The translations under genes and the position numbers were made by a program. The notes under the pieces are model-generated. The model searched no databases, was not told the origin of the DNA, and saw only the letters and a program-made list of their open reading frames with translations. From positions 248,001-312,000 of the forward strand of contig NGBS01000292.1 in NCBI GenBank assembly GCA_002245135.1: a DNA stretch of 64,000 nt, read 5' to 3'. The stretch comes from Proteromonas lacertae (taxonomy: Eukaryota). Shown here one piece after another: positions 12,721 through 52,431 of the stretch; within the stretch, counting starts at the first letter, position 1, and the number at the start of each line of letters is the position of its first letter.

Positions 12721-15184
12721 TTATGTTAAATCTACTTTAAAATCTGTTTGCAACTCTTTTCGACATAATATTCCTTTCAATCTATTCTCATTATCACAAA
12801 CAGGTAAATGACGTATTCCCATCGAACGATCTATTAATAATAATAATAATGAATATTCATATACATAACGAATAAACTTTTGATAATGACCAACATTCAT
12901 TTACTATGAAAGGACTATGATTATAATAACATCTCAAATCAATATATAAATCCATTGACTTTGATAATACATTTATTTTATCAATATTCACTGTTAAACT
13001 AGATAAAGAAGTGCTAAAATCATATATTGATATTCTGTTGTTAATCAACTTTGGATCATCATTTATATTCTCTTCACTTACAAATACTTCTTTTTCAAAT
13101 AATACTATCAACTGATTTCGAAGAATTATTCCTAAACAATGATTATTTTCATCTATTATAGGAAAACCATTGTGAGTACTAATCAAATATTAATAAAACT
13201 ATAAACAAGAAATACGTTGTAGTAAGAACATTATATACTGTCGAGACTTTTTCTATTTCATGAAATGTAATTACTGGATTTATCATTACATCTTTTGCCT
13301 ATATATATATATATATATAATGTTAAAATTGTTATACATTTAACATTGATAAATGTTTTGGTGGAGTTGCTTCTACAAATGGAATTTTTCTTAACTCAAT
13401 GGTTTGATCATAAATTGAAATATTAAGAAAATCTCCAACCCATTTTGATATCATTAGCACTAACATTATAGGTAATAAATATTCTATATTATTTGTTGTT
13501 TCTAATAATATTACAGTTAAACTAATTGTCATTCTAGTTGTACCGCCCAATAATGCAGTTGAACCTATTAATGCATAAGTACCAGCTTTGATTTCACTAT
13601 TTGGTAATATTCCTATTAAAAACTGACCTATCATTCTTCCATAAGCAGATCCCATTAAAATTGTTGGAACAAATAAACCAGCTGGAACACTAATACCAAT
13701 TAAAAAAATATTAATTAACTTGAACTAAATTTTATATATATTATATATATAACACATAACAAAAAAGATATATGTAATAACAGCTAATAAATAAATAACA
13801 AAGAAATAGATTAATAATGCTTTCCAGTTCATTATATCAGTATTATGAAACATTCCTTTTATTGATTGTTCAAGTGGAGTAAATATTAAAGTTGCTAAAG
13901 GATTATAATAACCTTCCTCGCAACTATATCTTCGATAATATTCAAGAATTTCTTCACTTTCAGTAGGTATTTTGGAACAACTTCCATTAAATAAATTAGG
14001 AATCCAAAATTGAATTGTCACTGTTATAAAACCAATTATTAAAACTTCTAACACTTTAAATAATCTTCTCTTATGAATACAAATCCTTCGAAATTTTTGA
14101 ACTTTAATATTTAAGAAATTCCAACAAGCACCAAGTATTCCTCCTCCTATCCCAATTATTATAAATATTGGAATTTCCCATAAATGATAACCATCAGCAG
14201 GAAATGTTCCAAATGTAATTAAACCAGGTGAATTCATTGTTGTATCTCCTCTTTCTATCATTAATAATAAATTTAAAGTATAAGTGCTACACATTGCACC
14301 AAAAAATACTCTCCATGTCAATGGTAAAGACCAAAAACTAGAAGCTTCTTCTAATGAAAATAATACACCGCCTAATGGAGCACCAAATGCAGCAGCAACA
14401 CCAGCAGCTGCTCCACCACTTACAAAATCTCTTTTATCATGATCATTTCGATATTTCTTTAATGAATCATTATGTAATAGTTTTGGTATTTTGGGTAAAT
14501 GACTGATTATTGCTGCTAATGCTGCTCCTGTATGAACCATTGGACCTTCTTTTCCTCCAACTAAACCACCTGCTATACTCATCCATAAGCCAATCACTTT
14601 CACTGCTAATGTTTTAAATCTTAGGATTTTACTTATATTTGTACCATTTAAATAACTCTTTATTTCAGGAATACCTGAACCAGCTGCTGCTGGCTCTACG
14701 AATACAACTAATAATACTGGAATTGATATACATAATAATGAGATTGAAACAAAATATAAATAACCTAAGAACATCTGATTTTTCAATATTAATGAACGAG
14801 CTGGATTAAAACGTAAATTACTTACAAATGTTACACCTTCATGCTAAACCAAACGCTATTAAACCAGTACATATACCTACACACGAATAAACTAACCAAC
14901 CACATATAAATGCTATTCGTTTATCAGTTTTGGTTTGTTTTTCGAGATATTTCTTATTCAATCTATATATTACGCAAAATGTTTATACTCATTTTCAATT
15001 ATATCATAATCCAATGAATCATACTGCACTGTTATTGGTCTAATAATAATAATACATCAAAATACTCTTCTACGATATTTCGATGTTTAACTCCAAATAC
15101 TTCCTTCAATTGTTTAGCATGAATAGCTGATTTATCAGTTTCATCGGTTTCATATGGAATATCGTTCAACAAATAATCATTCAT
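12721..15184 (-). CDS. CLC chloride channel/antiporter (CLC-6/7-like) with CBS domains
   Basis: GSGIPE, GKEGPMVH, GVAAAFGAPLGGVLFSLEE, GLFVP and two CBS domains; apparent +1 frameshift at ~14844. Confidence 0.9.
13700..13771 (-). other. U12-type intron, AT-AA
   Basis: Donor ATATCTTT; removal to the AA restores the conserved VITFGISVPAGLFVP; branch site is weak. Confidence 0.6.
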
Positions 15185-15908
15185 GAGATATCCTAAAATT
15201 TAATTCTAACAAACCCAAGCTTTTGGCTTGATTCAATCATTTTTTGAAATTTGATTTTGATGTAGAGATGTATTATATAAATCGAATGAAAAACAGATAA
15301 AAGTCAACTGTGTTTATAGAATTGTTTATTTAACTTTTAAATAGACTTGTGAAATATTGTTAATAGACTAACAATAAACGATATGTGGATTTGATATAAA
15401 TATGTAAAACATGCCTATTATCTTTTTAAAAGAGTAGATGACGTAGATATTCATCAATATATATTGTGCTTAGTGTTATTATATGAATAATTAATATTAT
15501 TGGATAAAGTAAAGCTAATTCGTTAATATAGAAGATATTTCATAATACTTTCAATTTCATGAATATTGAATGTATGATATATGAATAATTATGTTAGATG
15601 AATAATTGCTTATATTGAATCATATGTTTAAATATCAATTATAAAACAGTTGTATTTACTGAAGTATGTTAGTTGTTATGTAGATATGAATTTATAAACA
15701 ACTAGATAAATATATTGTTAATACTTAAAAGTGATTGATTTGATGTATTTTATTGATTTTACATAGAAACTTAAAATGACATGTAAATTGACATATTGAC
15801 ATTTCAAATTCATTTTAACATATGAAGGTGATAAAGAGTTCAATTTGTGATATTGGGTATTAAATTATTTTCTATTATTATTTTGATGAGTATAGGTTAT
15901 GTAGAGAG

Positions 15909-18519: not shown

Positions 18520-20460
18520 TTAATCAACTTCTTCAATATGTGGACCTTGAGCACTTCCACCACTTGGAGCAGCACCAGCTCCTGGCATTCCACCAGCTGG
18601 CATACCTCCTGCACCACCGCCTAACTTACTCATTATTGGCATTACTTTATTTTCTAATATCTTCAATTGTTCTTCATATTCTTCTTTCTCAGCATTTGGA
18701 TGACTGTCTAACCAACTAATTGCAGCTTCAGCAGCATCTTCTACAGCTTTCTTATCATTTTCACCTAATTTATTAGCTACAGCTTCTTCACGAACACTGT
18801 TCTTTACACTGAAAGCATAGTTTTCTAATTGATTCTTGGATTCTACACGTTCTTTATTTCTATCATCTTCAGCTTTGAATTTCTCAGCTTCAGCAACCAT
18901 TCTTTCAATTTCTTCAGGTGTAAGACGACCTTTATCATTTGTAATGGTAATCTTATTAGCTTTACCAGTACTCTTTTCTACAGCACTTACATTCAAAATA
19001 CCATTTGCATCAATATCATAAGTTACTTCAATTTGTGGAACACCTCTTGGCATTGGTGGAATTCCATCTAACTGGAACTTACCTAATAAGTTATTATCTC
19101 TTGTCATTGATCTTTCACCTTCAAATACTTGAATCAATACACCTGGTTGATTATCACTGTAAGTACTAAATACTTGAGTTTTCTTAACTGGAATTGTGGT
19201 ATTTCTCTTAATCAATACAGTCATTACACCACCAGCTGTTTCTAAACCTAAACTTAATGGAGTTACATCCAATAATAACAATTCATCTAATTTTCCACCT
19301 TTATCAGCACCAGTTAAAATAGCAGCTTGTACTGTTGCACCATAAGCTACAGCTTCATCTGGATTAATACTTTTACATGGTTCTTTACCATTGAAGAATT
19401 CTTTTAACATTTGTTGTACTTTTGGAATACGAGATGAACCACCAACTAATACAACTTCATCAATTTCACTTTTACCTAAACCAGCATCTCTTAAAGTCTT
19501 TTCAACTGGTTCCATTGTCTTACGGAAATAATCCATATTCATTTCTTCAAATCTAGCACGAGTGATTTTACTGTTGAAATCAATACCTTCATATAAACTA
19601 TCAATTTCAATCATTGCTTCAGTTGAACTGGATAAAGTTCTCTTTGCTCTTTCACAAGCTGTACGTAATCTTCTTAATGCACGTTGATTGGAAGTTAAAT
19701 CTTTGTTGTATTTTCTTTGGAATTCACGTGAGAAGAAATCAACTAATCTATTATCAAAATCTTCACCACCTAAATGAGTATCACCAGCTGTGGCTTTAAC
19801 TTCGAAAATACCATCTTCAATTGTTAATAAAGATACATCAAAAGTACCACCACCTAAATCGAAAATCAAAATGTTGTGTTCTTTTACATTCTTATCTAAA
19901 CCATAAGCAATAGCTGCAGCTGTTGGTTCGTTAATAATACGTAATACATTCAAACCAGCAATTGCACCAGCATCCTTTGTAGCTTGTCTTTGACTATCGT
20001 TAAAGTAAGCTGGAACTGTAATAACTGCATTCTTTACATCACTACCAATGTAAGCTTCAGCTGTTGTCTTCATCTTCGATAATACCATTGAGGAGATTTC
20101 TTCAGCTGAGAAGGTCTTGGTTTCACCACGATATTCTACTTGACATAATGGTTTTTGGTCTGGACCAGCAATCATCTTGAATGGCCAATGTTTCATATCA
20201 CTTTGGACTGATGGATCATTCACTTTACGACCAATTAAACGTTTAGCATCGAATACAGTGTTTGTTGGATTCATAGCACATTGATTCTTTGCAGCATCAC
20301 CAATTAAACGTTCAGTTTCAGTAAATGCAACATAAGAAGGAGTTGTACGTAAACCTTGATCATTAGCAATGATTTCTACACGATCATTTTGCCAAACACC
20401 AACACAAGAATAAGTTGTACCTAAATCGATACCAACTGCAGGGCCTGAGACTTTAGACAT
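18520..20460 (-). CDS. HSP70: cytosolic HSP70, intronless
   Basis: [32 protein letters not shown]-terminal EEVD. Confidence 0.98.
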
Positions 20461-21272: not shown

Positions 21273-23895
21273 TTAATCAGCAACATTAACATCAACATCT
21301 TCCGTATCAACTCTCTTACCTTCAGAGGATTGTAATCTTTTATTTTTATTTTTATTATCTTCTTCAGGATTAATCAATCCTAACTCAGTCAAATATTCAA
21401 TCTCAATTCTTCTATAATCACCATTCATTCTATCTAACTCCATATGTCGCTTCTGTTCTTCAGACATTTCATCCTTTTGCTTAGTCTCATGCTTAGTTTC
21501 ATCTTTCTGTTTAAATGCATTTACCTTTTCAATATGTTCAGTAATCTTGTCAATATAATGGACTCTTTGTGATTCTCTTTCAAAATGTGATTGTATTATT
21601 TGCACTTCATTATTTACTTGTCTTCTCATTGATATTGGGATACTTAAAATGTATAAATTACCGTTACTATCACCAACTGCTATTAATTGCCTTCCAGTAT
21701 CACTATTTAATCTAAATTCCATTGATGATATTTGACCTGATGTGATTGGATGCACTATTGAGGCTGAATTACTCTGATCTGTGAAATCCCATACTTCTAA
21801 GTAACCATCAGTCCTACCAATATACAATACACCTGGACGTGTTGGACTCCATCTACCAATAGTAAAATCAGCTTGAGATCTTGGTGAGATAAACACAGGA
21901 TCTTGTAACTCACCCATATATATGTGGAAACTCCATGAACTTACTGTCAAATATACATTTGATACGAATGGTGATCTTTCTAATGATTTGATTGGTCGAA
22001 GTTGATCTTGTGAATGCCATCTGACATAGGAAGGTACCTCTCCTTCTAATTGGTTTAAATCACCACTTGCAATAACACCCATCTCTGAAACACATCTAAA
22101 GATAGTACTCTCGGTTTCATTGGGATCTGAGAAAATGAACCTCGTCATAGCCAAAGCACCTACTTCAGAAGAACAATCTATTAAATAACTAAATCGTGGA
22201 ACCCATGGCACTTCTTCATCATCTTTATATCGATACAATCCTGATCTCTTTGCAATTTCTTTATAATTCAAATCCCATACATTAATTTGGCCATCAATTG
22301 AACAGGACATAAACTGAGTAATATCTGAAGTCTCTTTCTTGTTAATCTGTCCTCTTGTATTCACTTCCATTTGTGTTTTAATCCAATGTAATGCCGTCAC
22401 TGCTTTACTGTGGCTCTTATCTGATGAACTGTATACAATTGGATCTAAATATTGTGAGTGTAAAGGATCTTCTAAAGGATCTCTTGGTCCTTTTTGTTTT
22501 TCTCTTTCTTTTTCTGCCCAGTTTTGTGCTAAATTGTACATCATCACTTGACCACTTGCTCCTCCTACTATCACAGTGTCTGGATTCTCAGGATGTATTA
22601 TAAATGAGTTAATTTCAACAGGTGATTTAAGAATCATCATTGGATGAATTAGATCTTCGAAACTCCATACCAATATATATGAGTTAGTAGGGAAAACACT
22701 CTTATTTCTTTTTTCTTCAAAACTGAGTTTCTCATTCACACTACACATTACTACACCTTTTCTTCTAGGATGCCATCTTATGTGTGATATAATTCTACCT
22801 TTACTGTGATCTAGATCAGTAAATACTCTAAATTCAGAGATTTGGTTTTCGGCTTGGTTGCCTAATGACAAACCATCTTCAGCAAAACTGTCCAACTCAT
22901 TTTTAAATACATCCACTGTCTCATTACTTTGTAAAGCAGATCTAACTAAAGGAACAACTCTATCCAAGAACAACGATAGTTCTTTTGACTTCAATTGCTC
23001 TTCTATGAAATTCTGGTCAAATGATCTAGTTTCATACTGAACTGAACTATTAACCAATCTAGCCAACTGACTTTGACAAGCTTCATCTTTTTTCAATGAG
23101 AAATAACTTGGACCTATTTGTAAGCATGTTTCTCTTTCCATTCTATTCAAATTATTGGCGAAATCAGGATCAATGTGTTTTCTAAAGTCATCACAGGTTT
23201 CTGGATCAACATCATTGAAGGTATAAGGAGCACAGAATTCACTTCGTTTTCTAGCAATTGTATAACTCAATAAAGGCCTTTGTGACTTAATTGTAAGCCA
23301 TTTCACATTTTCTATGGTAGCTTCTTCTGTTTCGGATTTATATTCTCTTGTAGTTAATGGCATTACTTCGTATATTCTCTGTGCTTCGATTTCTGCAGCA
23401 ATTTTTCTTTGTCTTTCTTCTTCTTCTAATCTTAGTTTTTCTTGTCTTTCCGCTTCTTCTTTATCTTTGAATACTTTTAATTCTCTATTGAATGCATCTT
23501 CTGTAATTGCAGCATACCAGTTCTATTGAAAATAAATCAAAAATAAAATACAGCTCCATATTGTTCATCAGGATCAGCTACTAAAATAATATCATCAAGT
23601 GGATATTCCTTTAATTGATCTGCACATGGTTGAAATATACAATAAAAGCCTACTTGTTGGATTTCATCCAACACATCATCTCTATTAAATAATTTATATG
23701 GTACTACATCATGTAAACCTTCACCAGTCTTTAAATCTATCGATATAATTAAAAAGTAAAGTAAATACCAGCATCTTCCATCTGTTTGATAGTTAATAAT
23801 AAAGAAACACATCCCTCTGGTGGCTGAGGTTTATTGTCTTCCACTACTACCTTCTTCTTCTTCTTCTTCTTCTTTCCCTTAGCTTTCTTTGCCAT
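21273..23895 (-). CDS. WDR63: WD40 axonemal dynein intermediate chain WDR63/DNAI3 (IC140-like)
   Basis: ALQSNETVDVF, ILVWSFEDLIHP, SCSIDGQINVWD, RWSPTRPGVLYIGRTDGYLEVWD; ATG at 23895; two short 5' introns. Confidence 0.8.
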
Positions 23896-25660: not shown

Positions 25661-28600
25661 TTACACCAAATTTATTGTTTTAAGAAATGAAAAAGTCTCT
25701 AAAAATGATTCTATTTCTGTTTTTGTAATATCTTCTTTTACTGTTATTAATAATACATCCAACTTACTGAAAATTCCTTTGTTTTCTTTCATTAATCTCA
25801 ATTTACTTTCATCTAATTCATTTCCTGACAAATTTACTTCATATATTGTTCCACTATAATCTTTTAATCTTTCTATTAACATTTTTAATCCCTTTTCACT
25901 CATTCCAATATCTATTTAATAGTATTAAATTCTTATTATACTTGAAAGATTTAACGATGGATAATAATCAATAAAATAATCAATATTACTACATATTATC
26001 TCCATTCCTTCATCTCCAATATTATTGTTATTTATTGAAACATACTTTGCTTTGCTTGAAATACAATCCATCAATTCTCTTAATCCTTTTGAAGTAATTT
26101 TATTGTTAGATAAATCAATAGCCTTATAATAAATCTGATTAATCAATGAAATGTGAGAATCATTGATATTCAAATCTATGGTTATATGAAAATAAATTCT
26201 ATACTGGATAAATCATATTTTCTTTCATTAAAATATCTTCTTTTCTTTTTAATACAATAATCCAAATAATATTCCAACTCTTCATTCGTCCATGACGTAG
26301 ATTTAACTTTTATGAATGGATATTTATCACCAATTAATGATTTTAAACAAATCGATTTTAATCCATTCATAGTTATTGAATTTCCATTTAGATTTACTCT
26401 GTAAAGCACTTCTATTGAATCTGACATTTTTGTTAATAACTCTACACTTTCGTCATCTATCGACGTATTACTCAAATTCATTTCATATGGATAATATTCA
26501 TCCTTTAACATGTTTAGATTGTTTTGTAATAATTTAAATCCAGCATTACCAATTGGATTATCTATATAAATAAATGATTATAACAAATATATATTATACC
26601 GTGAATGACTATTCTTCTAATATTATCATTTTCTTTCACATAATTCATCAAATAATCTATTCCAGATGAATCTATATTATTATCACTTAAATCCAACATT
26701 TCAATCTTTTCTTCAACATTCTTTAAACCGTTTAACAAATGTCTCAATCCAATTGACGATAATCCCATATCTATTCATCATTACACAATAACAATTATAC
26801 TTGTACAGTTTATTTTATTATCATAATCTTCATAATCATTATATTCTAATAACAAACGGCAATATGGAAGTAATATTTTCATTCCTAAATCTCCAATTTT
26901 ATTTCCATTTAATTGAAGCTCTTTTAAACATTGAAATGAAGAGAGATTGTTAATCAGTATTTCTATACTTTTGTATGTAAGTTTATTATCTAGACAATAA
27001 AAAAGAATATCATATTATACTACTCAAATCTATTTTTTTTATCTCTCTTAATTCGTTTAATCTTAATGAAATGAATGATTTGAAAATATCATCATTAATT
27101 TCTAAATCATTCAGATATAAACTATTTATAGTTTTAATAAATTTGATTAACTCTGGAATGTCTTTATCAATCAGTAATTCTTTACTTCCTTTAAAATTAA
27201 AATCAACTTCTGTAATTGGAAATTTAGAGAATAATGATTTTAATCCTTTTGAACTGATATTTAAGTTTTCTGTAATATCTATTTTCTGAAGATTTGGATA
27301 CTTATATAACTCTTCTGCTAATAGTATCATCGATTCATCATTTAAGTTCATATCATAAAGATCTAATTCATTATTTTTGTTAATTAATAAATGCAAATAT
27401 GGAAGTAACAATTTGAATCCTTTAATACCAATTCGATTAGCTATTTCAAAATAATTCATATTCTATGATAAATATACTAGAAAGATTTATATATTCTAAT
27501 TTCATTACTGGAATTGATTTAATAAATGATTCAATGAAATCAAACGTAAGATAACACGAGTTTAAATACAATTGTTGTAAATTTGATAATTGACTAAAAA
27601 ACATTCCGAATAATGGTTGATGTTGGATTGGAATGTTACAATCATCTAATAGAATAGAAATTATCAGAATTATACTGAATTTAAGTTTTGTAAGATTCAT
27701 TAATTTCAATACTTTGAACAAGTAATTCATTCCATCTTCACATAAACATATGCATTTTGAATCAACTGTGAGGATTTCATTATAAACATAAATATGAAAT
27801 ATTAATTCATCTAATAAACATTCTTTTTCATTATTTTTACACTTATGTTCTATTCCATATTTCAGTTTGTCTATAATAACATAATCTTCTTTGTATATTT
27901 TCATCAACAATAATATCGACACTATTATTTCATTTGGTTTGTTAATGTAAAAATCTATCAAATCATCACGAATATTTTCTCTTTTTTCACTCTTAAGATA
28001 GTATTCTGCTTTTACATTAAATGATGATATTTCTATTAAATAATCATTATTAAATAACACATCTTTTCTTTCTTTACACAACATTAAATTATTCTCATTA
28101 TCTCTCCATATTTCACCCATTTTTATCATTTCTTTTTTCAGCTCTTTTAAACTCCATCTATCTTCAATTTTCACTTTCAACATTCTGAATATCATTTCTT
28201 TTATTATTTCATCACATTCTGCATCAATACTGTATTTACATCTCACAATATTCTCTTTTGTTTTATCCATATTATTATCTTCATTAAATGGTAATCTTCT
28301 TACTAATCATTTCATATAATATACATCCAATTGACCAAATTACACTTTTATCATCACATTCATATCCGTTCAACTCTTCTGGACTTTTGAAGCAGATATC
28401 ATATAATCTCATTTCATCTTCATTTCTCAAACTATCGATAAATAAATCACATAACTTTATATTATCACCATCTTCCTCATATATTATGTTACTACTCTTC
28501 AAATTACTAACAACTATATTATATTCACTTAATATCATCAATATATCACATAAACCACATAATACATCACATATATCACTTTTACACGATAATGAGTTAA

Positions 28601-28946
28601 TTTGAAGTAGCTCTTCTAAATCTCTCACATAATATTCTCTTTCTATCAACATATATTTATATACATCATCCATTGATATTTCACATCGTATAACACAACA
28701 AAAACGAAAATCACTTAAAGAACTACATAGATCTTCTATACATCTTAGCATTTTTCACTTACATTATCTACATCTATTATCTTTATCAATCTTTTACATT
28801 TTTTTTGTAATAAACTCACCTCACTTACACTCTCTTTCAATACTTCATATTCCTATATTGATATTATTATTATATTATCATACATTACTATCAATATCAT
28901 ATCTTCTTTTCAAATACTCAGTTACTCCCTCAATTTTGAAATACAT
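25661..28946 (-). CDS. N-terminal pseudokinase + RNI-like LRR protein (frameshifts near 28752 and 28298; possibly pseudogene)
   Basis: VVSNLKSSNII, IKLCDL, FKSPEE, VIWSIGCILYEM, then many LxLSxNxI repeats. Confidence 0.7.
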
Positions 28947-32488: not shown

Positions 32489-34485
32489 TTAATGTATTAA
32501 TTTAATACAAGTTTCAGTTTCAATATAATCTTTGATTTTTCTTTGCCAATTTCTATCATATCCACTGATTATCTTCATCAATTTCTTCAATCCATAAATT
32601 TTGATAAACTCACTCATCTTATTCAATCTTATTTTATCCATATTAGTAATAATAGAATCATATAACTCGTAAGAACCTTCAGATGGGAAACGCAATAACC
32701 AACAGAAAGAAAATACCAATTTCACTACTTCTACAAATATTGTATAATCTTCTTCACTGTTATAGTTACTTTCTATTTTTGAATAATCTTCATCTTCGTC
32801 ATCATTATACTCTTCAACATCTTCATCATCTTCATTGTTATTATTCTCTGCGTAATTATCACTTTTATGTATCAAATCATTTAACAATAAATCGAATAAA
32901 TAATCTGATGGAGAAAACAACCATATCGCAAAAGTGTAATAGATAATGTAATTACTTAAATGTGGAAGTATTAATCTTTAAAAATATAAATAAATTCAAA
33001 TTATATACTTTAATATAGTGAATTTCATATAATCATCCACACTTAAAAATGAAGGTAATGGTATAAAAATTGCACTCCATAATTCTAACTTTATAAAAAC
33101 AGTAAAATCTCTGATTGCTCTGTAATATTCACTATTGTATAATAAATAAATAAAATATACATATCATCTTCATATTGAAGTGGATTAATATACATAGAAA
33201 GAAAACTTGATAATTTAAAGATACTTTCTCCATTATTATATTTAAAAGTAATTTCTGGTAATTCATATTCTGGATTATCTCTTTTCTTATAATTCTATAG
33301 AAAACATATTTATAAAAAACAAATATGTATAATACAAATATTAATTCACTTAGTAATAAATACTTGGATATTAACATACTCACAACATTACCTTTGTTAT
33401 TATAATCATAATTTAAAGGTAAAAATATAACATGATCTCTAAACAAATATAACATATTATCACTATAAACAGGAGGATTAAATAATTCATTCAAATAATG
33501 ATGAGAAATCCTCTTTTTGTAACATAATTCTGTTGTAAAATATAATATTTCTAACTCATCCAAATATTTATTTATCTTATCAATGAAATTCTTTTTGAAA
33601 TATTTCCTAATAAATCTTTCTCCCCATGTTCCTTTCATATGTAAATAATATCTAATCACTTTCATATATTGATTCAATTCTAAGAAAGAAATAGAAAAAA
33701 AAAATAACAATACTTGGTTTTGTTCTATCATATCCTGTATTTTCTATGATTCTATTAAAAATATTCTTAGGTAAAGGATATTCTTTTCTTCTTATCAATA
33801 ATGCTAAGATATGAACTAAATCGTTTGGTATAGTGAAATGGGGTGATATTTCTCTGAATGAAATATACTGCAATTTTATGTATAACAGTTTTGTCTTTTT
33901 ATTAACATTGATAAACTTATTCAGCTTGATTACACCTTTTAATATTGGATATAATGCATAAGATAAATCATTTGTTATTATATAAGCGTCATTCTCTAAT
34001 GACAAATCTCTTAATAGACTAGAAAAGAGATAAAATGAGAGAAATATAATACTTCTTATTTCCTTCCATAATAACCTCATAATGAGACAATCCGAATGTA
34101 TTAACAAAGTTCATTTTGAAATAAGAGTCGTACATTGACATTGAACCTATTTAAGAGTTGATTTATAGAAAAAAAAAATGAATACAATGTCCTTGCGAAT
34201 TAATTTCTAGAGGAAAATCATTCATAAATGCATATAGATATGGAACAATTTTCAACTCTGTGAATTCTGTGAAAATGAACTGGATGTATTTCTTGTATAA
34301 TTCGAAATTGAAATTTGACTTCTGCACCAAAAATCCTAAAAATTCAGATCCGTTAATAATAACTCTATAAAAAGATACTATTAATCAACTTACCTTATTT
34401 CTTCATCATGTGGTAATGATCTGTACAAATCTAAGTGTTTTGATTTATCAACAACAAATTCTGATATTTCATCTACTTTACTCAT
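32489..34485 (-). CDS. multi-exon hypothetical protein
   Basis: ATG at 34485; consecutive ORFs joined by short GT-AG introns; no recognised motif. Confidence 0.55.
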
Positions 34486-36445: not shown

Positions 36446-37758
36446 ATGAGCAGCGCACACATAGAATTAGACATTAAATATGAAGCTCCCAGAGGCACTA
36501 GAGTCCAGGTATGCCATCAACTTCTTTATATGGTTAGGCTTATCTGAATTTACTGAAGGCTTGTTTAGGTGCAGGTATTTTTGGGTTGCCAATAGCTATG
36601 CATGATGTATATTAGTGTAAATTTATATTTTTTTAGTCTGGCATAGTCGAATCGGTAATTTTGATGATTGTAATTGCTATATGGGTGAGCTATTCATTAT
36701 CAAAACTGATTACAATAGAACGAACTGCAATCGTTGAAAGGCACACAGGCTTCAAAACAACCAACCTTCTCTCAGAAATCTGTTATCAAGCATTTGGTAA
36801 ATGGGGATCATATGTATTAGAAGCAACCGTCTCTCTCACAATGTTAGGAGTAGGTGTGGTATATATAACCACTTCAGCCGATTTAATTTCGCATTTACCT
36901 TGGGACAAAGCAGGATCAGATTTCCTATACAAAAATAAAGCCATGTTCGTACTATTTATTGGAATATTATTAATACCTTTAGTTTTATTACGTGACTGTG
37001 CTTCATTATCATTTGCGAGTATGCTAGGCAATGTAGCTATCATTGGTAGTTTATTGATTGTGTTTATCTATGGATTAGTGAATAATGATTTATCTCATAT
37101 GCACGATATACCCTATGTGAAAACATCATCAGCTGCATTATCTAATCTATTTGGTACTTTGATATTCTCATATGGAATAATATTTAATTTAATGCCAGTA
37201 CTACAAGATATGAAAGATAAAAAGCAATTTCCAATAGCCATGAATGGATCATTAGGAACTGCAGCTATATTATACATTATAGTGACAATATCACTGTGTG
37301 TCATCTATAATAATGTTCCTTCAGGAATAGCTGGTAATATCATACAGAATTTAGATAGTAATAATCCATGTTACTATGTATCAACAGTATTAGTGTCAAT
37401 GATGTGCATTTTTTCATTCCCATTAGCTGTATGTCCAGCAGTACAGATATTAGAACCAAAACCAAAGGATGATGATTGTGGATTCTTCACAAAAACACCT
37501 GGTAGAATTATATTGAGATTAATTGTGTTAATTATTGATTGTGGTTTAGGTGCTTTGATTCCTAGTTTTAATATAGCCGTTACATTGATTGGTGATGTTA
37601 CATTAACATTTGGTACATTTATATTGCCTCCTATTCTATATTTGAAGTTGAAAGGACATGATATGACTAAATTCCAAATTGGAGTTGAAATATTTTTCGT
37701 GTTATTGGGTGTTGCAACTATGGTGTTTGCAACAGTCAATTCTATTTTGTCGTTATAA
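36446..37758 (+). CDS. amino acid/auxin permease (AAAP, SLC36/38-like) paralog 1
   Basis: NLLKACLGAGIFGLP, EICYQAFGKWG, FSFPL, FILPPILYLKL; ~11 TM. Confidence 0.88.
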
Positions 37759-37941
37759 TCTTCTTAATCTTAACGTAAATTTATTCTTTTAAGATTAATA
37801 ATTAATTCATTTGATTTTAAGTGTGTATTTAAAAATTCTATAACTACTTTATACTATGTTAATATGAAACAAATAAAAAAATAAAAAATAGGCTTGACTA
37901 AATCAAGCTTTAGTTTTCCACGGTTTCTACGTAAAACACAA

Positions 37942-39406
37942 ATGAGTAAAGAGCTTATTCTTCTTGAAGATGACATTAAAAAATCAACAAATTCTCAAGT
38001 ACATGCTTTCTTCTAACAATTCATAGGCTGCAATTAATTTAATGAAAACATGCTTGGGATCTGGTCTTTTAGCTTTGCCGATTTTGTTCCAAGAGGTATG
38101 CAATGAATATATATTTCCTTTGTAGTCTGGTATTGTTGAAAGTGTACTTATATCATCCATAATTGGTTTTTGGGTGTATAATTGTGCAACTAAATTAGTT
38201 AAAATACAATACTTACTTGTTGATCGATTTGATGATTATAAAACACATTCAATGTACTCAGAAATTTGTTATCAAGTATATCCACATTTTATTATTATAT
38301 TACAGGCATACGGTAAAGTAGGAGAGAAAATGTTTGACTTGATGACAAGTGTAACTTTAATTGGTATAGGTTTAGTTTACACTGTATAAATTAAAACAAT
38401 TAATTTAATCCAAATAGTTAACATCCAGTGAAATGTTATCTGCATTGCCATGGGATAAAATGCATTTAGATTTCATGACTAATCAGAATTATTGTATTAT
38501 TTTAGTGACATTACTACTAATTCCAGTCATATTGTTAAGAGATATGACTTCATTATCGTTTTCAAGCTTATTAGGAAATATTGCAATAATTAGCAGTATT
38601 GTTTTGGTGTTAATGTATAATTTTTTAAAATTAATATAATCATAAATAGATATGGATTAATCTATAATGATATGAATAACCTATTAGTTAATGTAAAATG
38701 GGTAGATAGTTCATTGAAAGGAATATCCAATTTATACGGGACATTGTTATATTCATTCGGAGTAATCTTCGTTGCACTACCAACAGTAGATGAGATGCAA
38801 ACTCCTGACGATTTCAGTAGAATATTATCCATTACCACCACATCTTCAGCTTTATTTTATGCAATATGTAACTCATTCCTCTATATATTGTTCCATAATG
38901 CTACTGGTGGCGTGAAAGGAAATATATTAGAGAATATGCATCCAGAATCTGTTTTTTATTATGTTGCTACAGTGTTAGTCTCATTGATGTGTGTATTTTC
39001 ATATCCTGTCACTGTTATGCCAGCTTTGCAATTATGTGAGCCAAAAAGTGATGAAAATGATCGTGGATTATTCACTCATAATTATAAGAAGATTCTATTT
39101 AGGATATCGATTGTTATTATTGCTTCAATAACTGCATTTTTCTTTCCTAGTTTTAATATCGTAGTTTCATTATATATCTTTTTGAAAACATTCTATTATT
39201 CAATATTATTTCTTTAATTTAATATTTTACTAGGTAATTTAACAATAACTCTTATTACATTTGTATTTCCTCCATTATTATATATTAAACTAAAAGGAGA
39301 AGATACTACAACCTCAGAGAAATATCATAATATAATTTTATCAATATTTGGACTTGCAAGTATGGTTTTTACAACAGTTACAGCAATAGTAACATTAAAA
39401 CATTAA
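37942..39406 (+). CDS. AAAP amino acid permease paralog 2
   Basis: NLMKTCLGSGLLALP; tandem with paralog 1; last exon joined through an AT-AC intron. Confidence 0.85.
39174..39230 (+). other. U12-type AT-AC intron
   Basis: ATATCTTT donor, TTCTTTAAT branch, TTTTAC end; splicing gives VVSLLGNLT, matching the paralogs' VSLIGNVT. Confidence 0.85.
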
Positions 39407-39443: not shown

Positions 39444-42400
39444 TTATCTACTAAATAATTCAATATTATGAGAAAGATTTTCTACTTTTATTTTATACAA
39501 CTCGTATAAATATGGTAAATACTCATATATTTCTGATATTTCATCATGATTCAATTTCAAACGTGTTAAATCTATTGAATGTTTCTCTTTTATTGAAGAT
39601 AAAAGTGTGTGATATGTTGTATGTAAATCAAAAACTGTCTTTTCTATCACTCTAAATCTTTGATTTGGATATTTCAAACAAATATTCAACAACAAATATT
39701 CATATCCTTTTTTACTATCACTATTATTATATTCTTCACAAATATCCTCCAATAAATCTATTCATATAATAGAAATATAATTAATACTATATCTTTTCAT
39801 AATTTCGTTATATTCTTCTTCACTTTCAAAATGATATTTACTATTGTTTATCATTTCCTTTACTTTTTCTATCCATTTATAATTTGGATCATATAATTCT
39901 ACATCTTCCATTAACTCTTCGTCTATATCTCCCATGTTATTACCTGACACAATAATCTCTTTAACATTTGGATATTTTTTAATGTAAGTTAAAAGCTCTC
40001 TTATCTCATTAGATGTGAATTTATTATCTATAAATAATAATAATTACAATTATAATAAACTTTTTAAAACCAAAGATTTTATCACTATTTTTGGATTGAA
40101 TAGCATACATAAATTTGATATACAATTATCTGTTAAGGAATTATCTATAATACAAAATAAATATATTGAAATATATATACTTGATAAACATAGCATTTCC
40201 AGATTATGGAATGTATTAAATCTACTAGATATTATCTTGATTGCTAAATCAGTTAAACCACATTCTATTACATTATAAAATAATAGAATTACTAATAAAA
40301 TCTATTCTTATAAAATTATTAATATTCTTTGAATTAAAAAGATACTCCACTCCTTTATCAGTAATACAATTTCCTAATTGAATTATTATAATTAAAATAT
40401 ACTATTGATATTCAACATATTAATGTATGGTAAATTATCTAATGATTTTGATAAATATTTACAGCTAATTGCAGTTAAATTATTATCACCAACATTTATA
40501 AACTGTAAGTTGGACATACAATACAAATTCAAACATATTATTTTCATTGATTCATCTGTTAAATTTGTTTTCTGTAATTCTAAATTTTTTAAATTATGAA
40601 AAGAATCTGGTAATATTTTAAATCCTTTGAAATTTAATTTATTATCTATTTATTATTATGCTATATATATAATACAATTAAGATTGAATTCATTTAATCT
40701 CTTTGAATAAATTATATCACATAAATATTCTACTCCATCATCTGAAATATCATTTATACCTACATATAATCCCTCTAATCTTGACAGTATTGGAAAATAT
40801 TTAGACAAACCTCTTACTCCTTCATTTGTTATTCTATTGCCATTTACACCGAATGATTTAAGATTTGGTAGATGAGGTAATAAGTTACATAAATTATTTA
40901 AACCTTTGTCATTCAGATTATTGTCTATGAAGAATCGTATTTAATAAAATAACATATATACATCCAACGCCAAGTACTGTTATTGATAATGATTTAGGAA
41001 TAGATAATATCTCATTCAAATGTTCTACATCATCATTTCCTATCTCATTATCTATTAAACTAAAGATGAAAAGATATACAATTCATAAATATATTTCTGA
41101 GATTTAGTAAACTCATTAATTTTTTCATTAACATGCAAAATGAATAAGAATTTAATTGGCATCCACACAAACTAATTTCCTTTAGATTTTGACAAATTAA
41201 TATTGCATTAGAAAAACATTCTATACCAATTTCTGTAAAACTATTATTTGACATATCCAATTTTATTAACTTGTTTAAATAATGTAGGTTAAGCGATATA
41301 TACTTTAAACCACAATCATCTATATTTATTTCATATAAACTAAGTTCTGCTAAATTTGTCAATATGCTGAATCTATTACTTATTTCTTTTATTCCTTCAT
41401 TGCCTATATTGTTTTTATCAAGACATAACTGCTGTAAATACTTTAAATACGATAATTGTGAAGCAAGTTCTATAGCTCCTACAGTATTGAATCTATTATC
41501 TAAAAAAATAAAATATATTTATATTAATATACTCATTAATGATAAAATTTCTAAATAAACAACATTTCTTAGATTCTTACTTAACTCAATAACTCCAGAA
41601 TCATCAATATAATTATCTATTCAAATGAATATATTATAATATATACTATCCAATATAAGTTCTATTAAATACATACAACTATTCATTTGTCTAATTAATA
41701 AAGGAATAATGGATGATGATAAATTATCATCTCTAAAACATATTGTACGTAGTTGATATGCTTCAGACAATCCATCTAATATCAAATTCACTTTTTCATC
41801 ATTCAATCCACAATCTAAAAATAGACTATAAATATACATTGAAAATTAATTGTGATTATTCTTTTCAGATTTTTAATATAATAGCTTATGAAACAGCAGT
41901 CTTCAATAGTCAATCTCTTACCTATGTCAATAAAATAAAAATTTCTATACCTTTTGCTTCTATGTTTAGTGTATTTCCTATGCATTTACAATACTTCAGT
42001 CTTGAGTAATCATTTTCACAATCAATCATTTTCATCACTTTACTACCAATTCCATAATTCATTGCTATAATACATAAAAAGTTGAAAATTATTTCATCCC
42101 TTGTTCTATTGAAAGTATTTGCCACATCTTCCAATAAACCTATTTCAAATATTATCATGAAAAACAAGTATACCACAACTATCAACAACATATAACATTA
42201 CTCTTTCATTTGAATAACAGTCTTCTGTCTTTAATAAATTATATACTTCACTTTTACTAATAACTATTTAAATGAAATGATAATAATATCAATATATACA
42301 TTCTGAATCTACTTCTTTTATTTTATCCAAAAGATTAGGAATCTTTGATGAATCGATTGGATTTCTACTAATTTCCAGTTTAATTTTGTATGGTAATTGC

Positions 42401-45400
42401 TGAATACTCTCCAACAACACTTCACACCCCTTTTCTGTCATTCTGTTGCCTAATTGATATATAAATAAATAAAATACCTTTCAAATCTATCGATTCTAAT
42501 AATGGTAGAAGATGAAGTGAATGAGCAAATGATATTATTCCACTATCATCTATATAATTATTACATAATGTGATTCTTTTCAATTCAGACAAATAACTCA
42601 TGTTTTGTAGAAAGTATTTAAATCCAGCAATACTTATATCATTCTCTATTTTTAGAAAATATATAAAAGATTTACTGTTAATGTTAAATTCTTCAAGATT
42701 TTGCTAGTACGCTAAAATTTTTGCATAATACAGTAAATATATCATCTGTTATTTCACAGTCTAAATAATATCAGAAGAAATAAATACTATTAATTATTAG
42801 ATTCTTCAATGATCTTAAAAGTCTAATTGATTCGATCAATTCTTTAAACAATGATAGACAATTATGAATATCATCGAAAGCTAATGTTGTCAAATTTGTG
42901 ACATAACGTAAATTGTCTCTTATCGCTTTCAACCCTAATATTCCGCACCCACAATCTATATAAAATATAAACTCAAATAATAAGCAAACTTTGAAAACTG
43001 ATTTGCTCTAGTTTTCTAATGTATTTGAAAGAATTGGCAATTGATATCACTCCTTCATCTCCAATTGTTATTAAAAAAAAAATAAAAGTTTTCAAATTTG
43101 ATAAATATGGTAAAGCTTTTGAAAATTCCAATATTCCTTTTGAAGTAATAGAGTTTCCTATAAAAAATGCATTTGATTGAATAATATACTATAAATTCCT
43201 ATTATTTCAAGTTTTGTGAATCTTGTTAAAGCTTTGCTCAGCTTAATTAATACATTGTCACTTAGTTTGTTCTGAGAAATATTTAACCAATAATAATTTA
43301 GGACAATATTGTAAAGCATCACATAATATTTCTATATCATTATCATCAAGATTCTGATCTATGAAAATGGTAATGAAGAAAAATACTTTCAAGATTAATT
43401 CCATAATTATTCTGTATTCCTGAAAATATTTTATTCTGACTTCCTTTTAGTTTTGTTATATTCATTATTGATAGTTTATAAGCAGGGTATAGTGAGAGTG
43501 CAAAACCAAACAATATTCCAAAGAAATAATTCCTTGGATTATTCATTACACGATATGTATGGTTTGTCATAATATCTACAATTGATTAAAAAAGAATTTC
43601 TATACTAATATTCTTACTTAGTTGTTTATATATATAATGATTATCTATAATGTACTGACTTGTCTTCAACATTTCAAAAGCATCATTACTAATATTTTTG
43701 AATGAAAATTTCAATGGAATTGATTTGTTTTCATAATTATATAATAATAGTTTCACACTTTCATGGTTTAAAGATATTCCACATAAACTCAGTTTTTCTA
43801 ACTTTGGCATTTTGTACATGTATCTATGAATATATTTAACTGATTTATCACTCAATTTATTATCTAAAATATGTATTAAAAAAACTACATTATACAAGAT
43901 AAATACAACTTTGATAGTTCATTAAATGAGTTAGAATAACACAAAAATATAATAATATCATTGTCTTTAAGATGAGTGAAAGAGATTTTGAGAGATTTTA
44001 AATATGGCATATGTGACAAACCTATTGCAAATTCTTTCATTTTCTTATGTAAATTTATACTTTCTAAATAAATATAATAATTAATTAAATATACTGGACA
44101 TATTCAATTGTTCTAAACACGGAAACATTGATTCAGTTGGAATAAATCTTTTCAATTCTATGTTATACATGTTTAGTATTTTCAACTTTTGAATATAACT
44201 ATAATCTATATCTGATAGATGTTGTGTATCATCAACACTCATATTGGATAGATTTAGTTGAAATGGCTTTTCAGAATGCAGATAAAACTTCACTTTAAAA
44301 CTATTATCTTTCTTTATCAATAAATCTATTAATTCCTTATTATCTTTATTTAACCAACTAATATTTAACAAATAGTAAAGATATTTAATTTATTGTAAGA
44401 ATTAAAGTAGTGAATCATTTCCATTAAGTTTTCTAAACAGAATTACAATGCATATATACTTTTGTTTGTTATTGTTTTGTCAAATATAATTGAATCTTTT
44501 ATTAAATAATTATTTGAAATTAAATTGATAACAGAATGGAACATCGATTGCAAATATATCAATTATATCATTTTCTTCTATCATCTCTTTCATCTTCTTC
44601 TTTAAATGATTATAAATCTCTTCTATTGTTGGTCTTTTGTTTGGATCATTATTACAACATTTTCCATATAATTTGTGGTAATTCGAAGTGTTTCCATTGT
44701 AATTTATATGCAATATAGGTGATTTTGAGAATAAAATATAATGTAATAATACTCCTAGACTGAATATATCACTTTTATTACAGATTTCTTTGTTTTGTAT
44801 AACTTCTGGTGATGTATAAAATAAATCTTCTAGATCACATGATTCTATAGGATTCATTTCATATTCACAGGGATTACTTACTATATAATTACCATCATCT
44901 GTTATTAAGATATTTGAAGGTTTGATTCTTCCATGAATTAAACCAATTTTGTGTAATAATCTTAATTGATTTACTATTTGATTAAACATCTTATTTATGG
45001 TATTTTCATCAAAACTATCTACTCCTTCAATTGATCCATTTTTATAATAAGGTAATACTATTATCGATATAATCTTCGTACATTGCAACTATTGCAAAAA
45101 AATAGGAGTTTCTAGAGAGGATATTAACATAATTGAATTTATCTATAAAAATAATAAAATATATTATACATATGAAAGTTGAATTGGAATTGATTGTTCT
45201 TCTAAATCATATATTTTATATACTAGCCTGGTTAAAATTCTTTTCTTCCACAATATAAGTATATGAGTATTTGGTTGATTTTAGCTTAGATTTTAACTAT
45301 TTGTACATTTATATGAAATATACTTTAAAACCAAAAATTTCACAAAGTTCCATATCCGCATCTGACTATATATATACATATAACATATCAATACCTCAAC

Positions 45401-46765: not shown

Positions 46766-46793
46766 AAGAGTTGTTTTATTTTTTGTTTGAAAA

Positions 46794-47903: not shown

Positions 47904-47940
<37 letters not shown>

Positions 47941-50681
47941 TAGCAATGAAAATGAATCACTTTCTGTTAAGCCAATATATTATAGTTTATTACATTATAT
48001 GTCATTATTACCATATGATAATTCAACAATTGAAAGAATATTGTTAGAATATCAAGAGAAATATAATGTTTCATTCACTAATACATTAATAAAGCAATAT
48101 TTCCCAAGTGTTACTGATAATATTATATATTTACAATTAGAGTTATATTTTCATGTATATATAATATATATATATATTGTTATTATTATTAAATATAGAT
48201 ATTTGAATCAATATCTAAAGATCTGTATAAAATTAAAATTCATCATTATGAAGAAGACACTGTAGTACAAGCACTTACTGTATAATATATATTTATTATT
48301 ATATATTTAGTCTATTTATAATATAATGTCTAATGAATATGATGCATTCTATTTCTTCTATATCTCCTACAGTGGTACAAGACTGCTAATACAGTGTCTT
48401 AATGTATTAGATGAAACGGTAATATTAAAAGCTTGTCAATTAACCTATTTATATTTATACAATTATACTGATGGAATTGTTCCTTTTATAGAAAGAGGTG
48501 GTTTATATGCATTAAAGGAATGTATAAATGATTATGATCCTCAAATCAGAATCGAGTCTTTAAAAGCTTTATCTGTGTTTTATAACATTGAGAATGAGAT
48601 TGATATTAAGAAATATGGAATATTGAAGGAATTATGTGAAATTATTGATTCTTATCCAAGTGAAGATATATCTTTTTATTATTATTATATCATTATATTT
48701 TATAATTATTTTTCTTTAATTTTTATTTGTTTTACTGTCCATTAGAGATATTTGATACAACTGTTCAAATCCTAATAATTGCAGTAAAGACTAATGTTTT
48801 TAATCAAGTATATATAAATATATATATTATATTTAATAGGATGAATTATCATGTAATGGAAGATTAGATAAACTATGTCATATCTTAAAAACAGAATTAG
48901 AAAATATAATAAACCATCAACCATCAATATCCTTATATATATATATATATATATAAATTGTTATATTTCCTTTATTATTTTTTACTCATTACCTTTATCA
49001 CCTGAAGAAGTATTAGATGTAATAACACATATATTATTATGTATAACCAATACAATATATCACAACACCAGAAACCAAAATATCATTTACAGTACTGGAA
49101 TAATTGAATATTGTTGGAATATTAAGAATAAAATAAGTGATACTTTTTGTGATAATATATTGACATTATTAATCAATTGTATTGATACAAATAAGACTGT
49201 TCAAAATGCTTTTGGTGGTGAGGAAATAAAGAATGATATATTATATATTTTGGATGAAAAAAATAGAAAAAGTAAAAGAGCTTTAGGTTATATAATGATT
49301 TCACATTTATGATATCTTTTTATTATTATTATAATGTTATTATTATAATTATTATTTTCTTTAATTTAAAAGTTGTAATTGGAATAGTGAAAAAATCCAA
49401 CAACTTTATACTTGTGAAGAAATATTAAAGTATTTCAAAATTGACATTAATTACTGTAACTATGATCCTGAATCTCCAATCTCTATCTATAACCCAACAC
49501 TCTCTGCATTATATGCGTTTATTAATCTTTCTCTAAATAATAATAAATTAAAACAATCGATTAAGAATTATCCATCTATCAGTAGAACTTTGATTGACTT
49601 TTTGACTGTTGATAGTTATGATATTCGAAAGAATACAATATTTTGTTTAAGTAATTTGATAGATGATAATGAGGATCTAGCAGATCAGTATATATATATA
49701 TATATATATAATATTATTTATTTATTAGATTGTATAATTTATCAATAATTCCAAAGTTAATTTATAATATCAATGACAATAATGATGATCCACTATCTAC
49801 AAAGGCATATCAAGTATTAGAAAGAATGAGCAAACAGACTATTATCTATATAATCAGTTCATTATATTATATGAATAAAAATGAAATTAATAATAATTTC
49901 AGTAGTAATTTAGTCAATCAAATTGAGAATGAATTTAAAGATAAAATATTGAAGTTGAATGATGATGATAAAGCTAATAAACCACATGTTGAGACTAATA
50001 AAGAGTTTATATTGTCTTATGTTAGTATTTTGAATGGATTATTATATACCAATTCTACTTCTAGAAAGTTCTTTTTATCAAAATTTATATCCTTTTTTTA
50101 GAAATTTCTGAGAAATTTCTTTAATTTTTTTTGTAAGGAATTGCACCGTTATTATATTTAATAATGAAAACTGATAATGAATTAAGAGATATTATTTGTT
50201 TAATATTAACTAATTCATCCCTTGATAGAAGTACATCTCTTCAAAACGAAAGTGTAAAAGAAGGCTTACTAACAGTATTTGAAGAGTTATTTGTCATTTT
50301 ATCGAAGAAGAGTGAAAGTGATAAAAATATGAAAGAAGAACATTATATCTATCCTTTTGATGTTTTAACGAATTATACATTAAATAATAGTTCCGTGTCA
50401 TATACTATTATGAATTGGAAAAATGATTTTTATATGAAATTGTTAAAGTATTGTCATAGTAGTAATAAAGAATATTCAGTAATATGTGTAGAGTTGTTAA
50501 TTTCGATTTTGGAACAAGTATTTTAATATTTATTTATTTATTTATTTAGTCTAAAGCTGGTGCTATAGCATCTGGAATTTCAGGAACAAAAACATGTTTG
50601 AATGAAATTGTAAAATATGATTATCTGAGCGATGCTTTAAGAGCAAGAGCAAAACAGTGTATTAGGGACTTAAAACTGTAG
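46794..50681 (+). CDS. armadillo/HEAT-repeat protein with four U12-type introns
   Basis: FIERGGLYALKECI, NQNIIYSTGII, GIAPLLYLI, IRKNTIFCLSNL ARM-like segments; an in-frame model needs both GT-AG and AT-AN introns. Confidence 0.7.
47905..47935. repeat. (TA)n microsatellite extending an intron donor GTATATA
   Basis: Same pattern at 108-139, 8873-8890, 25125-25151 and 49689-49710. Confidence 0.8.
48668..48735 (+). other. U12-type AT-AC intron
   Basis: ATATCTTT...TTCTTTAAT...TTTAC, phase 0, restores frame. Confidence 0.85.
48927..48985 (+). other. U12-type AT-AC intron
   Basis: ATATCCTT...TTCCTTTAT...TTTAC, phase 0, restores frame. Confidence 0.85.
49312..49378 (+). other. U12-type intron, AT-AA (alternative AT-AG end at 49372)
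   Basis: ATATCTTT donor removes the TGA; TTCTTTAAT branch; both candidate ends are in frame. Confidence 0.75.
50087..50136 (+). other. U12-type intron, AT-AA
   Basis: ATATCCTT donor in phase 0, TTCTTTAAT branch; the AA end gives in-frame SKF|GIAPLLYLIMK whereas the adjacent AG is out of frame. Confidence 0.8.
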
Positions 50682-50852
50682 TTCTAATTAAAAATGAATA
50701 TTATTAGAATGTAAATTGTTTGTTGTTGTTGAGATATTCCACAAGTTTGGAAAAATGAGCTTGGCTCGGCTTGAAGTCAAATACGTTGGTGAGATTAAAT
50801 TGATTTTAAAGACATTCATATTGAAATATAAATTAATAAATAGTGTAATTTA

Positions 50853-52431
50853 ATGAGTACTGTAGATTCAAAACTTTCAGATACTCAATCTTCAAGTGAG
50901 TTAGTATTTTTACTTATTACTACTGTTTTTAGCATGCTGAAGATTTAGTTTTACTACAGGAAGAAATAGATGCACAGCAAAAGAATGCAAAAGTAGCACC
51001 ATAATATCCTTTTTATTTAGTGTATTTATGAAAGATAGCCTTAATAAATATACTTATTTAAATTATCCAATGGTTTATGTATTTTTATACATGTTCATGG
51101 TATTTACAAATCACATTATGATACATCAATATAACACAAGTGAATGTAGAGGTCCTAGAGCATATTTAGTGGGCCAGATAGTACTAGGCTATCTAATAAT
51201 GTTTTTATATGCATGGACTTTTATTGGTCCTGTTCCATTCTCTTCATTTACATATTATTTAGCATTGTGGGCAGTTCATAGTGTGTTATCAGTGTTTTGG
51301 TTTATAATGGGAATAGTATGGGAAGTAAAACAGAAAACATGTGTATAAATTATTAATAATTATAAATTTCATATAGAGAGACGATGCTCCTGGTGTATTT
51401 TGGTTGTGTTTTGTTGAATTACTAATTTTTGCTTTAGAAGTCGTACTTTTAATCTTATCCTACATATTCAGTTCAATTGATGACTGTTTAGAAAGAGTGA
51501 AAGAAGAAGATGCAATAATTAAAGACTTTGAAGAACAATTCGAAGATGATAAACGTCTAATTGAGGAAAAAGAAGAAGAAAAAGAGAAACAAGCCATCAA
51601 ACCAGTATTTCAATTTGATGTTATTGAGAATAAACAACCTGTTGCTGGAAGAAATGCAAAAGCATCAGCAAAAACAATTAAATCAGTTAATGGTAGTGTT
51701 ACTCGTAGTAGAGCTGTACAATCAATTCCAACGAAGAGATCAGTGGGTGATGAAAGAAAAACGCAATCAGTTACAAAAAGATCATCCAGTGGAGAACATA
51801 AAAGTTCAAGTGGAAAAAGTGGTGGAAAAGGCGGAAAATCTAGTAGTGAAGAAGAGAAGAAAGGATCTAGTACAACGTCTTCAGATAAAGGTGAGAAAGT
51901 ATTTGGTGAAGCTAAGAAATGTATATATATATATATAATCATTTTATTATATTGATTTAAATATAGCATCAAGTGATTCTAAAAGTGGTTCAAAAAGTGA
52001 ATCAAAGACAGATTCAAAGAGTGAATCTAAAAGCACTTCATCTGATGAAAGAAAGAGTATTTACATTCATATTTTTATTTATTATTTTAATAGAAGATTC
52101 ATCAAGTGATTCACATAGCGATTCTCATAATAGAAAGAGTTCTTCTTCAGAGAATAAGTCGGGTGAAAGAAAAAGTGAGTCATCTACTACATCTAGTTCA
52201 AGTAAAGGAGGTGCAAATCATTCTACAAGTGGTAGTGGAAGTGGAAGTGGAAATGCTGAAGGAACAAAAGCAAAGAGTCATTCAAGTGAAAGTGAAGGTG
52301 AAAGAAAGAGTGGATCATCAAGTAGTGGTAAAGAAGATAGAAAGAGTGAATCATCTGGTAGTAGAAGTGGAGAAGAGAAGAATGATGACGATCCACCACC
52401 ACCACCACCACCTCCAGAAGAAGAAGAATAA
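50853..52431 (+). CDS. 4-TM membrane protein with Ser/Lys/Glu-rich low-complexity tail and poly-Pro end
   Basis: Hydrophobic segments 51060-51470, then S/K/E-rich exons; the exons join in frame. Confidence 0.65.
51004..51053 (+). other. U12-type AT-AC intron
   Basis: ATATCCTT...GCCTTAAT...ATAC; removes the TAA and gives VAPYYLNYPM. Confidence 0.85.

Follow-up and report, generated by a model that had tools for sequence, protein, structure and literature searches.

The window studied here, a 64,000-nucleotide (nt) stretch of contig NGBS01000292.1 (positions 248,001 to 312,000), contains seven short introns that begin with AT and that, judged from their letters, are very likely of the U12 type and AT-biased. 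An initial annotation made from the DNA alone had proposed their coordinates, and all seven stretches were confirmed to be present as described. Four of them lie in a single gene resembling those of ARM-repeat proteins, and the candidate introns and this gene are as follows:

13700..13771, minus strand: AT-AA intron in a CLC-6/7-like chloride channel gene; 72 nt, phase 1, in-frame stop if retained
39174..39230, plus strand: AT-AC intron in an Aa_trans amino-acid transporter gene; 57 nt, phase 1
48002..50682, plus strand: ARM-repeat-like gene; four putative U12-type introns interspersed with predicted GT-AG introns, 5' end of the model uncertain
48668..48735, plus strand: AT-AC intron, first of the four in the ARM-repeat-like gene; 68 nt, phase 0
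48927..48985, plus strand: AT-AC intron, ARM-repeat-like gene; 59 nt, phase 0, perfect donor, (TA)n interior
49312..49378, plus strand: AT-AA intron, ARM-repeat-like gene; 67 nt, phase 2, with an in-frame AG 6 nt upstream, at 49372
50087..50136, plus strand: AT-AA intron, ARM-repeat-like gene; 50 nt, phase 0
51004..51053, plus strand: AT-AC intron in a membrane-protein gene; 50 nt, phase 2, stop codon if retained

Analyses of the intron termini indicated that all seven begin with the claimed ATATC(C/T)TT, in the form ATATCTTT at four introns and ATATCCTT at three. When compared with the consensus signals given in the available part of bioRxiv 10.1101/2020.10.12.336362, three donors matched RTATCCTT perfectly and four had one C-to-T change, so that all seven fit if this change is allowed. 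The 3' ends were AC at 39230, 48735, 48985 and 51053, and AA at 13700 (minus strand), 49378 and 50136. The branch motif claimed for six of the introns was found in those six, ending 8–15 nt before the 3' end and leaving 9–16 nt from the presumed branch A to that end. With C-to-T changes allowed, these branch sites had 0–1 mismatch to the TCCTTRAC-like consensus, and the CLC intron had two. Three of the seven introns were in phase 0.

For comparison we used the GT-AG introns predicted by a small gene finder, which was trained on the window with no homology and whose output comprised 39 models and 163 GT-AG introns (median 32 nt). The branch core C[CT]TT[AT]A[TC] was present in 6/7 of the AT-starting introns versus 3/163 of the GT-AG introns, and C occupied position +5 in 7/7 versus 1/154 (GT-AG introns scoring at least 0). 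The greater length that had been noted for the AT-starting introns was confirmed, with a median of 59 versus 32 nt (Mann-Whitney p=2.9e-5) and only 10 of the 163 GT-AG introns reaching 50 nt. The donor octamer alone is common, as there were 27 ATATCYTT sites in the window, 12 of them on the sense strand of gene models and seven of these being the donors described here. The donor paired with TYCTTTAAT occurred four times against 0.03 expected, a number reached in 0 of 100 shuffles, in a test that is post hoc because the pattern was drawn from the finding itself.

To score the junctions, all in-frame GT-AG, GC-AG and AT-AN boundaries were enumerated at each site and their products were scored against homologue profiles. 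The boundaries listed above were the homologue-best at five of the six testable junctions, including all three with AT-AA ends. At the CLC intron they ranked first of 96 in-frame alternatives (685.3 bits; best GT-AG or GC-AG, 673.8), and splicing restored the residues T-F-G at a motif that was TYG or TFG in 115 of 120 homologues, none of which had an insertion at the site. GT-AG splicing inside the CLC stretch was rejected as it gave a lower homologue score and broke the conserved motif, and a nested reading, with a GT-AG intron within the AT-AA intron, is possible on paper and found no support. The transporter boundaries were joint first of 125 (257.4 bits versus 222.0 for the best GT-AG), the tie being a 5-nt slide that yields the same peptide.

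In the ARM-repeat-like gene, the product spliced from position 48326 was 668 amino acids long with one terminal stop, and it matched ARM-repeat proteins with E values down to 1e-31; its exons matched no Pfam family. Ten of the 20 matches were retained as likely orthologues for the junction tests, and a metagenome scan with an ARM exon yielded no relative (142 stretches, 0 confirmed). The 48668 boundaries ranked first of 149, and the junction was gap-free against 10 homologues. In P0242, a related open reading frame with 91% identity, translation continues beyond the junction for three residues, I-S-Y (I-S-F in the window), and then stops, so that this relative has probably kept the ATATC donor. 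With its AA end, the intron at 49312 ranked first of 62 (286.4 bits), and its removal gave the S-H-L-C-W-N that homologue P0249 also has. The gene finder had taken the AG at 49372 as the end of this intron, an option we rejected because it adds two residues, breaks SHL-xWN and scores 8.8 bits worse (277.6). The boundaries at 50087 ranked first of 31, with no in-frame GT-AG or GC-AG option. Retention of the intron at 48927 would shift the frame and no in-frame GT-AG or GC-AG option exists there either, but its boundaries ranked 14 of 147 because the site falls in a variable loop. At 51004 the competing in-frame choices were two GC-AG pairs, whose donor is poor, and three further AT ends; no GT-AG pair was in frame. 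The proposal that removal of each intron restores a frame or a conserved motif was therefore backed by homologues at five of the seven introns; at 48927 it holds by frame only, and 51004 had no homologue to bear on it.

The host lineage was assessed from genes elsewhere in the window, of which two were used as markers:

18520..20460, minus strand: cytosolic Hsp70 (lineage marker)
21273..23522, minus strand: intact DNAI3/WDR63/IC140 axonemal dynein intermediate chain gene

In a FastTree tree of 55 Hsp70 rows (54 of 120 hits, with fused and most redundant rows excluded), the window was sister to a clade of 16 rows (Shimodaira-Hasegawa (SH)-like support, 99), the deepest of which falls in one cluster with the Hsp70 of Blastocystis sp. 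Blastoise. The nearest named matches of USP14 were stramenopiles, and two proteins were 84–85% identical to it. The best PDB matches of the dynein chain gene were WDR63, DNAI3 and IC140 (E values 2e-73 to 3e-64), and its presence therefore indicates a flagellated host. All Blastocystis have lost nearly all flagellar genes, according to the part of PMC12129017 available to us, so that an intact DNAI3/IC140-like gene sets the window apart from that genus. The window has a GC content of 27.1%, and Table 1 of the same paper gives 27.0% for Proteromonas lacertae. The host is thus likely a flagellated sister lineage of Blastocystis, a Proteromonas-like opalinatan.

Together, these data suggest that the seven introns are removed by the minor spliceosome and that the host is a flagellated relative of Blastocystis sharing its AT-biased minor-intron system, a reading to which we assign a probability of roughly 0.7. 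The U12-type and AT-biased character proposed in the initial annotation was borne out by the AT starts (7/7), the C at +5 (7/7) and the branch motif (6/7). The gene finder also chose the same seven AT donors. Giving it a U12 class gained 84.6 log units, versus 0–21.5 for 12 decoys with permuted motifs, six of which picked nothing. This comparison is not fully independent, because the wobble variants in the U12 matrices had been selected with knowledge of the candidates.

We propose that U11 and U6atac would pair with ATATCYTT and U12 with TCYTTWAT, and that the C-to-T drift of a 27% GC genome would be tolerated as G-U wobble with standard small nuclear RNAs (snRNAs). The minor spliceosome would recognize the donor and branch site across the short intron, with the 3' end set by its distance from the branch A (9–16 nt) and not by an AG. 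Such a distance-set end would explain the three AA ends, as AC drifting to AA, and also the use of an AA 14 nt from the branch when an AG lies only 8 nt from it, at 49372. A survivor effect likely accounts for part of the AT bias: with GTATCC a single substitution away from the major donors of the window, GT-AG minor introns would convert readily, and AT-starting minor introns would remain because their conversion needs a change at both ends. Rfam searches at two thresholds, confined to the window, identified only the transfer RNA (tRNA) gene listed at the end of this account.

Several observations weigh against this reading. In addition to the choice of wobble variants in its U12 matrices, the gene finder had a codon model trained on models that already spliced the candidates, and the CLC intron was lost from its output under a stricter prior. 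The CLC intron also has a weak TAATTAAT in place of a good branch motif, and its GT-AG alternatives are only 11.5 bits below the AT-AA boundaries. Homologues do not support the boundaries at 48927, and the gene at 51004 has no Pfam family and no useful relative, which makes that intron the least supported of the seven. The lineage placement is from one quick Hsp70 tree; a CLC tree made by a quick method (43 rows) did not place the window, and no named Proteromonas protein was among the matches.

Published figures on other minor-intron systems are given here as found in the accessible sections of the papers cited. The pattern in the window is largely anticipated by Blastocystis, whose subtype ST1 has 346 minor introns among 35,412 (0.98%) together with the full set of four minor snRNAs and seven of the minor proteins (PMC5608401), and for which a second study describes 253 minor introns, 77% of them AT-AC, with a median of 39 nt and 49% in phase 0 (PMC10639083). 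As in the window, most of these start with AT, phase 0 is not depleted among them and, though short, they exceed the ~30-nt major introns in length. A minor share of about 1% of introns is at or above that of most animals and plants. The baseline used in the initial annotation, of minor introns well under 1% and mostly GT-AG, thus misses the likely sister genus. The window differs from Blastocystis in intron length (50–72 nt versus a median of 39), in having 7/7 AT-starting and 3/7 AT-AA introns, in C-to-T drift in both signals, in a local share of 4% and in the flagellar dynein gene of its host. The seven AT starts are compatible with the 77% of Blastocystis (P=0.16), and the AT-AA share for that genus is absent from the accessible text of both papers. 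What is new here is the lineage, the AT-AA share, which is possibly unusual, and a set of mixed hints on the age of the introns.

We also considered whether the same machinery serves a true genome-wide expansion, to at least 3% of introns, through minor introns that arose recently, some of them as copies of another intron in the same gene. Locally the share was 7/170, or 4.1% (95% confidence interval 1.7–8.3%), in a window that was selected for density, with four of the seven introns in one gene and with some of the 163 GT-AG predictions surely false (123 score at least 2, giving 7/130). Against the 0.98% of Blastocystis ST1 this yields P=0.0016 if introns are independent, an assumption that fails because four share a gene, and U12 introns are known to cluster on genes (PMC1557818). 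Without the ARM-repeat-like model the comparison becomes 3/157 (P=0.20), and counted by gene it is 4/39 versus 319/6544 in Blastocystis (P=0.12). The initial annotation had described the system as expanded in this lineage, which these counts do not show. Clustering in one gene has likely inflated the local 4%, and our guess for the genome-wide level is roughly 1–3%. The absent phase-0 deficit would fit an expansion, which we nevertheless regard as unlikely.

The evidence on intron age that bears on this expansion was mixed. The transporter belongs to four Aa_trans paralogues arranged in two tandem pairs (36446–39406 and 52667–55722, plus strand; 37–49% identical), which have two introns common to all four, one common to two paralogues and five that are private. 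The AT-AC intron at 39174 is in one of the four, a hint of gain, but four GT-AG introns are likewise private, so that intron turnover appears general among the paralogues and not specific to minor introns. The reading frame of the third paralogue shifts at 53880–53915 (plus strand), close to a short run of C and with about 45 codons left to the likely end of the gene; this is either an assembly indel or the mark of a young pseudogene.

Two introns of the ARM-repeat-like gene, at 48668 and 49312, had the most similar interiors of the 21 pairs (0.62; the other 20 pairs at most 0.24), a value that none of 741 GT-AG pairs reached, nor any of the 20,000 pairs simulated at each Markov order (three orders). 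These introns are in different phases, and their likeness hints at copying within the gene. However, the pair is rich in TTA repeats, and a GT-AG intron unrelated to the two scores 0.59 when compared with it.

At the CLC site, 0 of 74 readable metagenome loci had an intron (6 of 80 were unreadable), as would be expected if the intron were recent. Against this, interrupted matches occurred in only 23 of the 80 loci, and many may be transcripts or come from intron-poor lineages. In one CLC relative (L006, 1401–1506), a GT-AG intron lies 11 nt downstream from where the window has its AT-AA intron. The CLC model of the tortoise Blastocystis sp. Blastoise (P0134) hints at an older origin. Its only core deletion, of 22 columns, spans the CLC junction and TYG motif, which suggests a non-canonical intron at the 13771–13700 site mis-annotated as GT-AG-only annotation would leave it, and the CLC intron is probably present in the tortoise Blastocystis as well. 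Weighing against this, one other of the 120 CLC models is gapped at the junction, the Anopheles model P0234, where the gap lies within a larger garbled stretch. Identity of the CLC intron with the minor intron of human CLCN7 was rejected, as the latter presumably lies in the 5' part of its gene and not at the TYG motif. Its hg19 position is listed in PMC6800510, and no CLC entry was present in the available portion of an insect U12 survey.

Nor did the seven introns show the marks of transposon-like insertion known from Physarum: the reversed donor matched at best 0–4 of 8 positions in their last 20 nt, and no TA target duplications were seen in their flanks. We consider doubtful the fuller picture of an expansion in which minor introns make up several percent of all introns in the genome, a share exceeded only in Physarum, with AT starts in nearly all of them, AA ends set by branch distance alone in many, and new ones still arising, some by copying to another site of the same gene.

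A second alternative assigns the introns, taken as real, to the major spliceosome or to a hybrid, which would splice them as U2-type AT-AC and AT-AA introns. U2-type AT-AC introns do exist (PMC1557818), no clear U12 branch site is present in the CLC intron, and the major donors of the window, GTAT(A/T)(T/A) where GTRAGT is usual, already have TAT at +2 to +4 (T at +4 in 144/154; G at +5 in only 14/154). U2-type AT-AC introns are expected to have a major-consensus donor bar the first base and no U12 branch site, and the set has neither property. The C at +5, the branch motif and the greater length separate the seven from the major class, and the likely sister genus Blastocystis retains the full minor machinery, so that we consider splicing by the major spliceosome very improbable. 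Donors with T at +4 are associated with loss of U6 N6-methyladenosine (m6A) methylation. The least probable explanation, which we all but dismiss, is that the proposed boundaries do not delimit introns and that assembly indels or nearby GT-AG splicing account for the frames, for although the assembly has at least one likely single-base indel (in the third transporter paralogue near 53895) and in-frame GT-AG or GC-AG options are present at the CLC, transporter, 48668, 49312 and 51004 sites, every scorable option loses 11.5–37 bits and breaks a conserved motif, none exists at 48927 or 50087, and donor-plus-branch pairs cannot arise from indels.

Two other minor-intron systems offer a comparison. 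Like animal and plant U12 introns, those of the window have an RTATCCTT donor, a TCCTTRAC-like branch near the 3' end and clustering on genes, and AT-AA is the commonest non-canonical end in both (PMC10639083; PMC1557818). They differ in that about 26% of human U12 introns are AT-AC, at a density of ~0.3%, whereas the window has no confident GT-AG member and 3/7 AT-AA ends; non-canonical U12 ends are about 4% in animals and plants (PMC10639083), against which 3/7 gives P=0.002. Physarum polycephalum also has RTATC[C/T]TTT donors, relaxed 3' termini including AT-AA, and a 3' end tied to branch distance (bioRxiv 10.1101/2020.10.12.336362). Its more than 20,000 minor introns are, however, mostly GT-starting, with a TTTGA branch site, a co-evolved U12 and transposon-like termini, while the branch site in the window would fit standard U12 by wobble and such termini were not seen.

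Whether the unusual minor introns of Blastocystis were gained recently was left undecided by Larue and Roy, who called for a comparison within the clade (PMC10639083, accessible part). Proteromonas is not named in the one supplement of that paper that was searched, and our literature search found no report of minor introns in Proteromonas or opalinids, though the Proteromonas genome paper may mention them. A flagellated sister with the same AT bias would be the outgroup needed for this question, as the AT-biased system would then predate the split from Blastocystis and gain could be separated from survival. If the 3/7 AT-AA share holds genome-wide, it would offer a natural test of how 3' splice sites are chosen when the last base is not fixed. 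Annotation that admits only GT-AG, or only GT-AG and AT-AC, would mis-model such genes and undercount minor introns, as P0134 may illustrate.

Two further candidates in the window have U12-like donors:

33752..33781, minus strand: possible eighth intron; perfect ATATCCTT donor, AG (major-type) end, 30 nt, in frame, without a branch motif at the usual distance
2549..2579, plus strand: GT-AG intron; donor GTATCCTA U12-like, match to the branch site weak

The first was added by the gene finder only under a looser prior, and it is possibly an intron or else coding; its host gene has no Pfam family (exons of 32489–34485 scanned). The same prior added 53863–53909, which was rejected since it spans the likely frameshift of the third transporter paralogue. 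The intron at 2549..2579 is the sole GT-AG intron of the 154 with C at +5 and may be a hybrid, or an intron converting or already converted. The gene finder's 40307–40345 was rejected as a GT-AG minor intron because it has a negative score and is coding-like.

Elsewhere in the window are two intronless, shortened and divergent Hsp70-like genes (34738–36267 and 57595–59142, both plus strand; family read from the sequence). Two genes appear by eye to be leucine-rich-repeat-like, one at 39466–44242 (minus strand), modelled with 27 short introns, and one at 25661–28946 (minus strand) with a kinase-like start. The motif TGTTTGTT, a Blastocystis polyadenylation motif, occurs about 30 nt after two stop codons, at 4694 and 50717 (plus strand); the window holds 10 copies, several inside coding DNA, and the placement after stop codons is probably due to chance. 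The remaining feature is the Rfam match:

60067-60139, minus strand: tRNA gene

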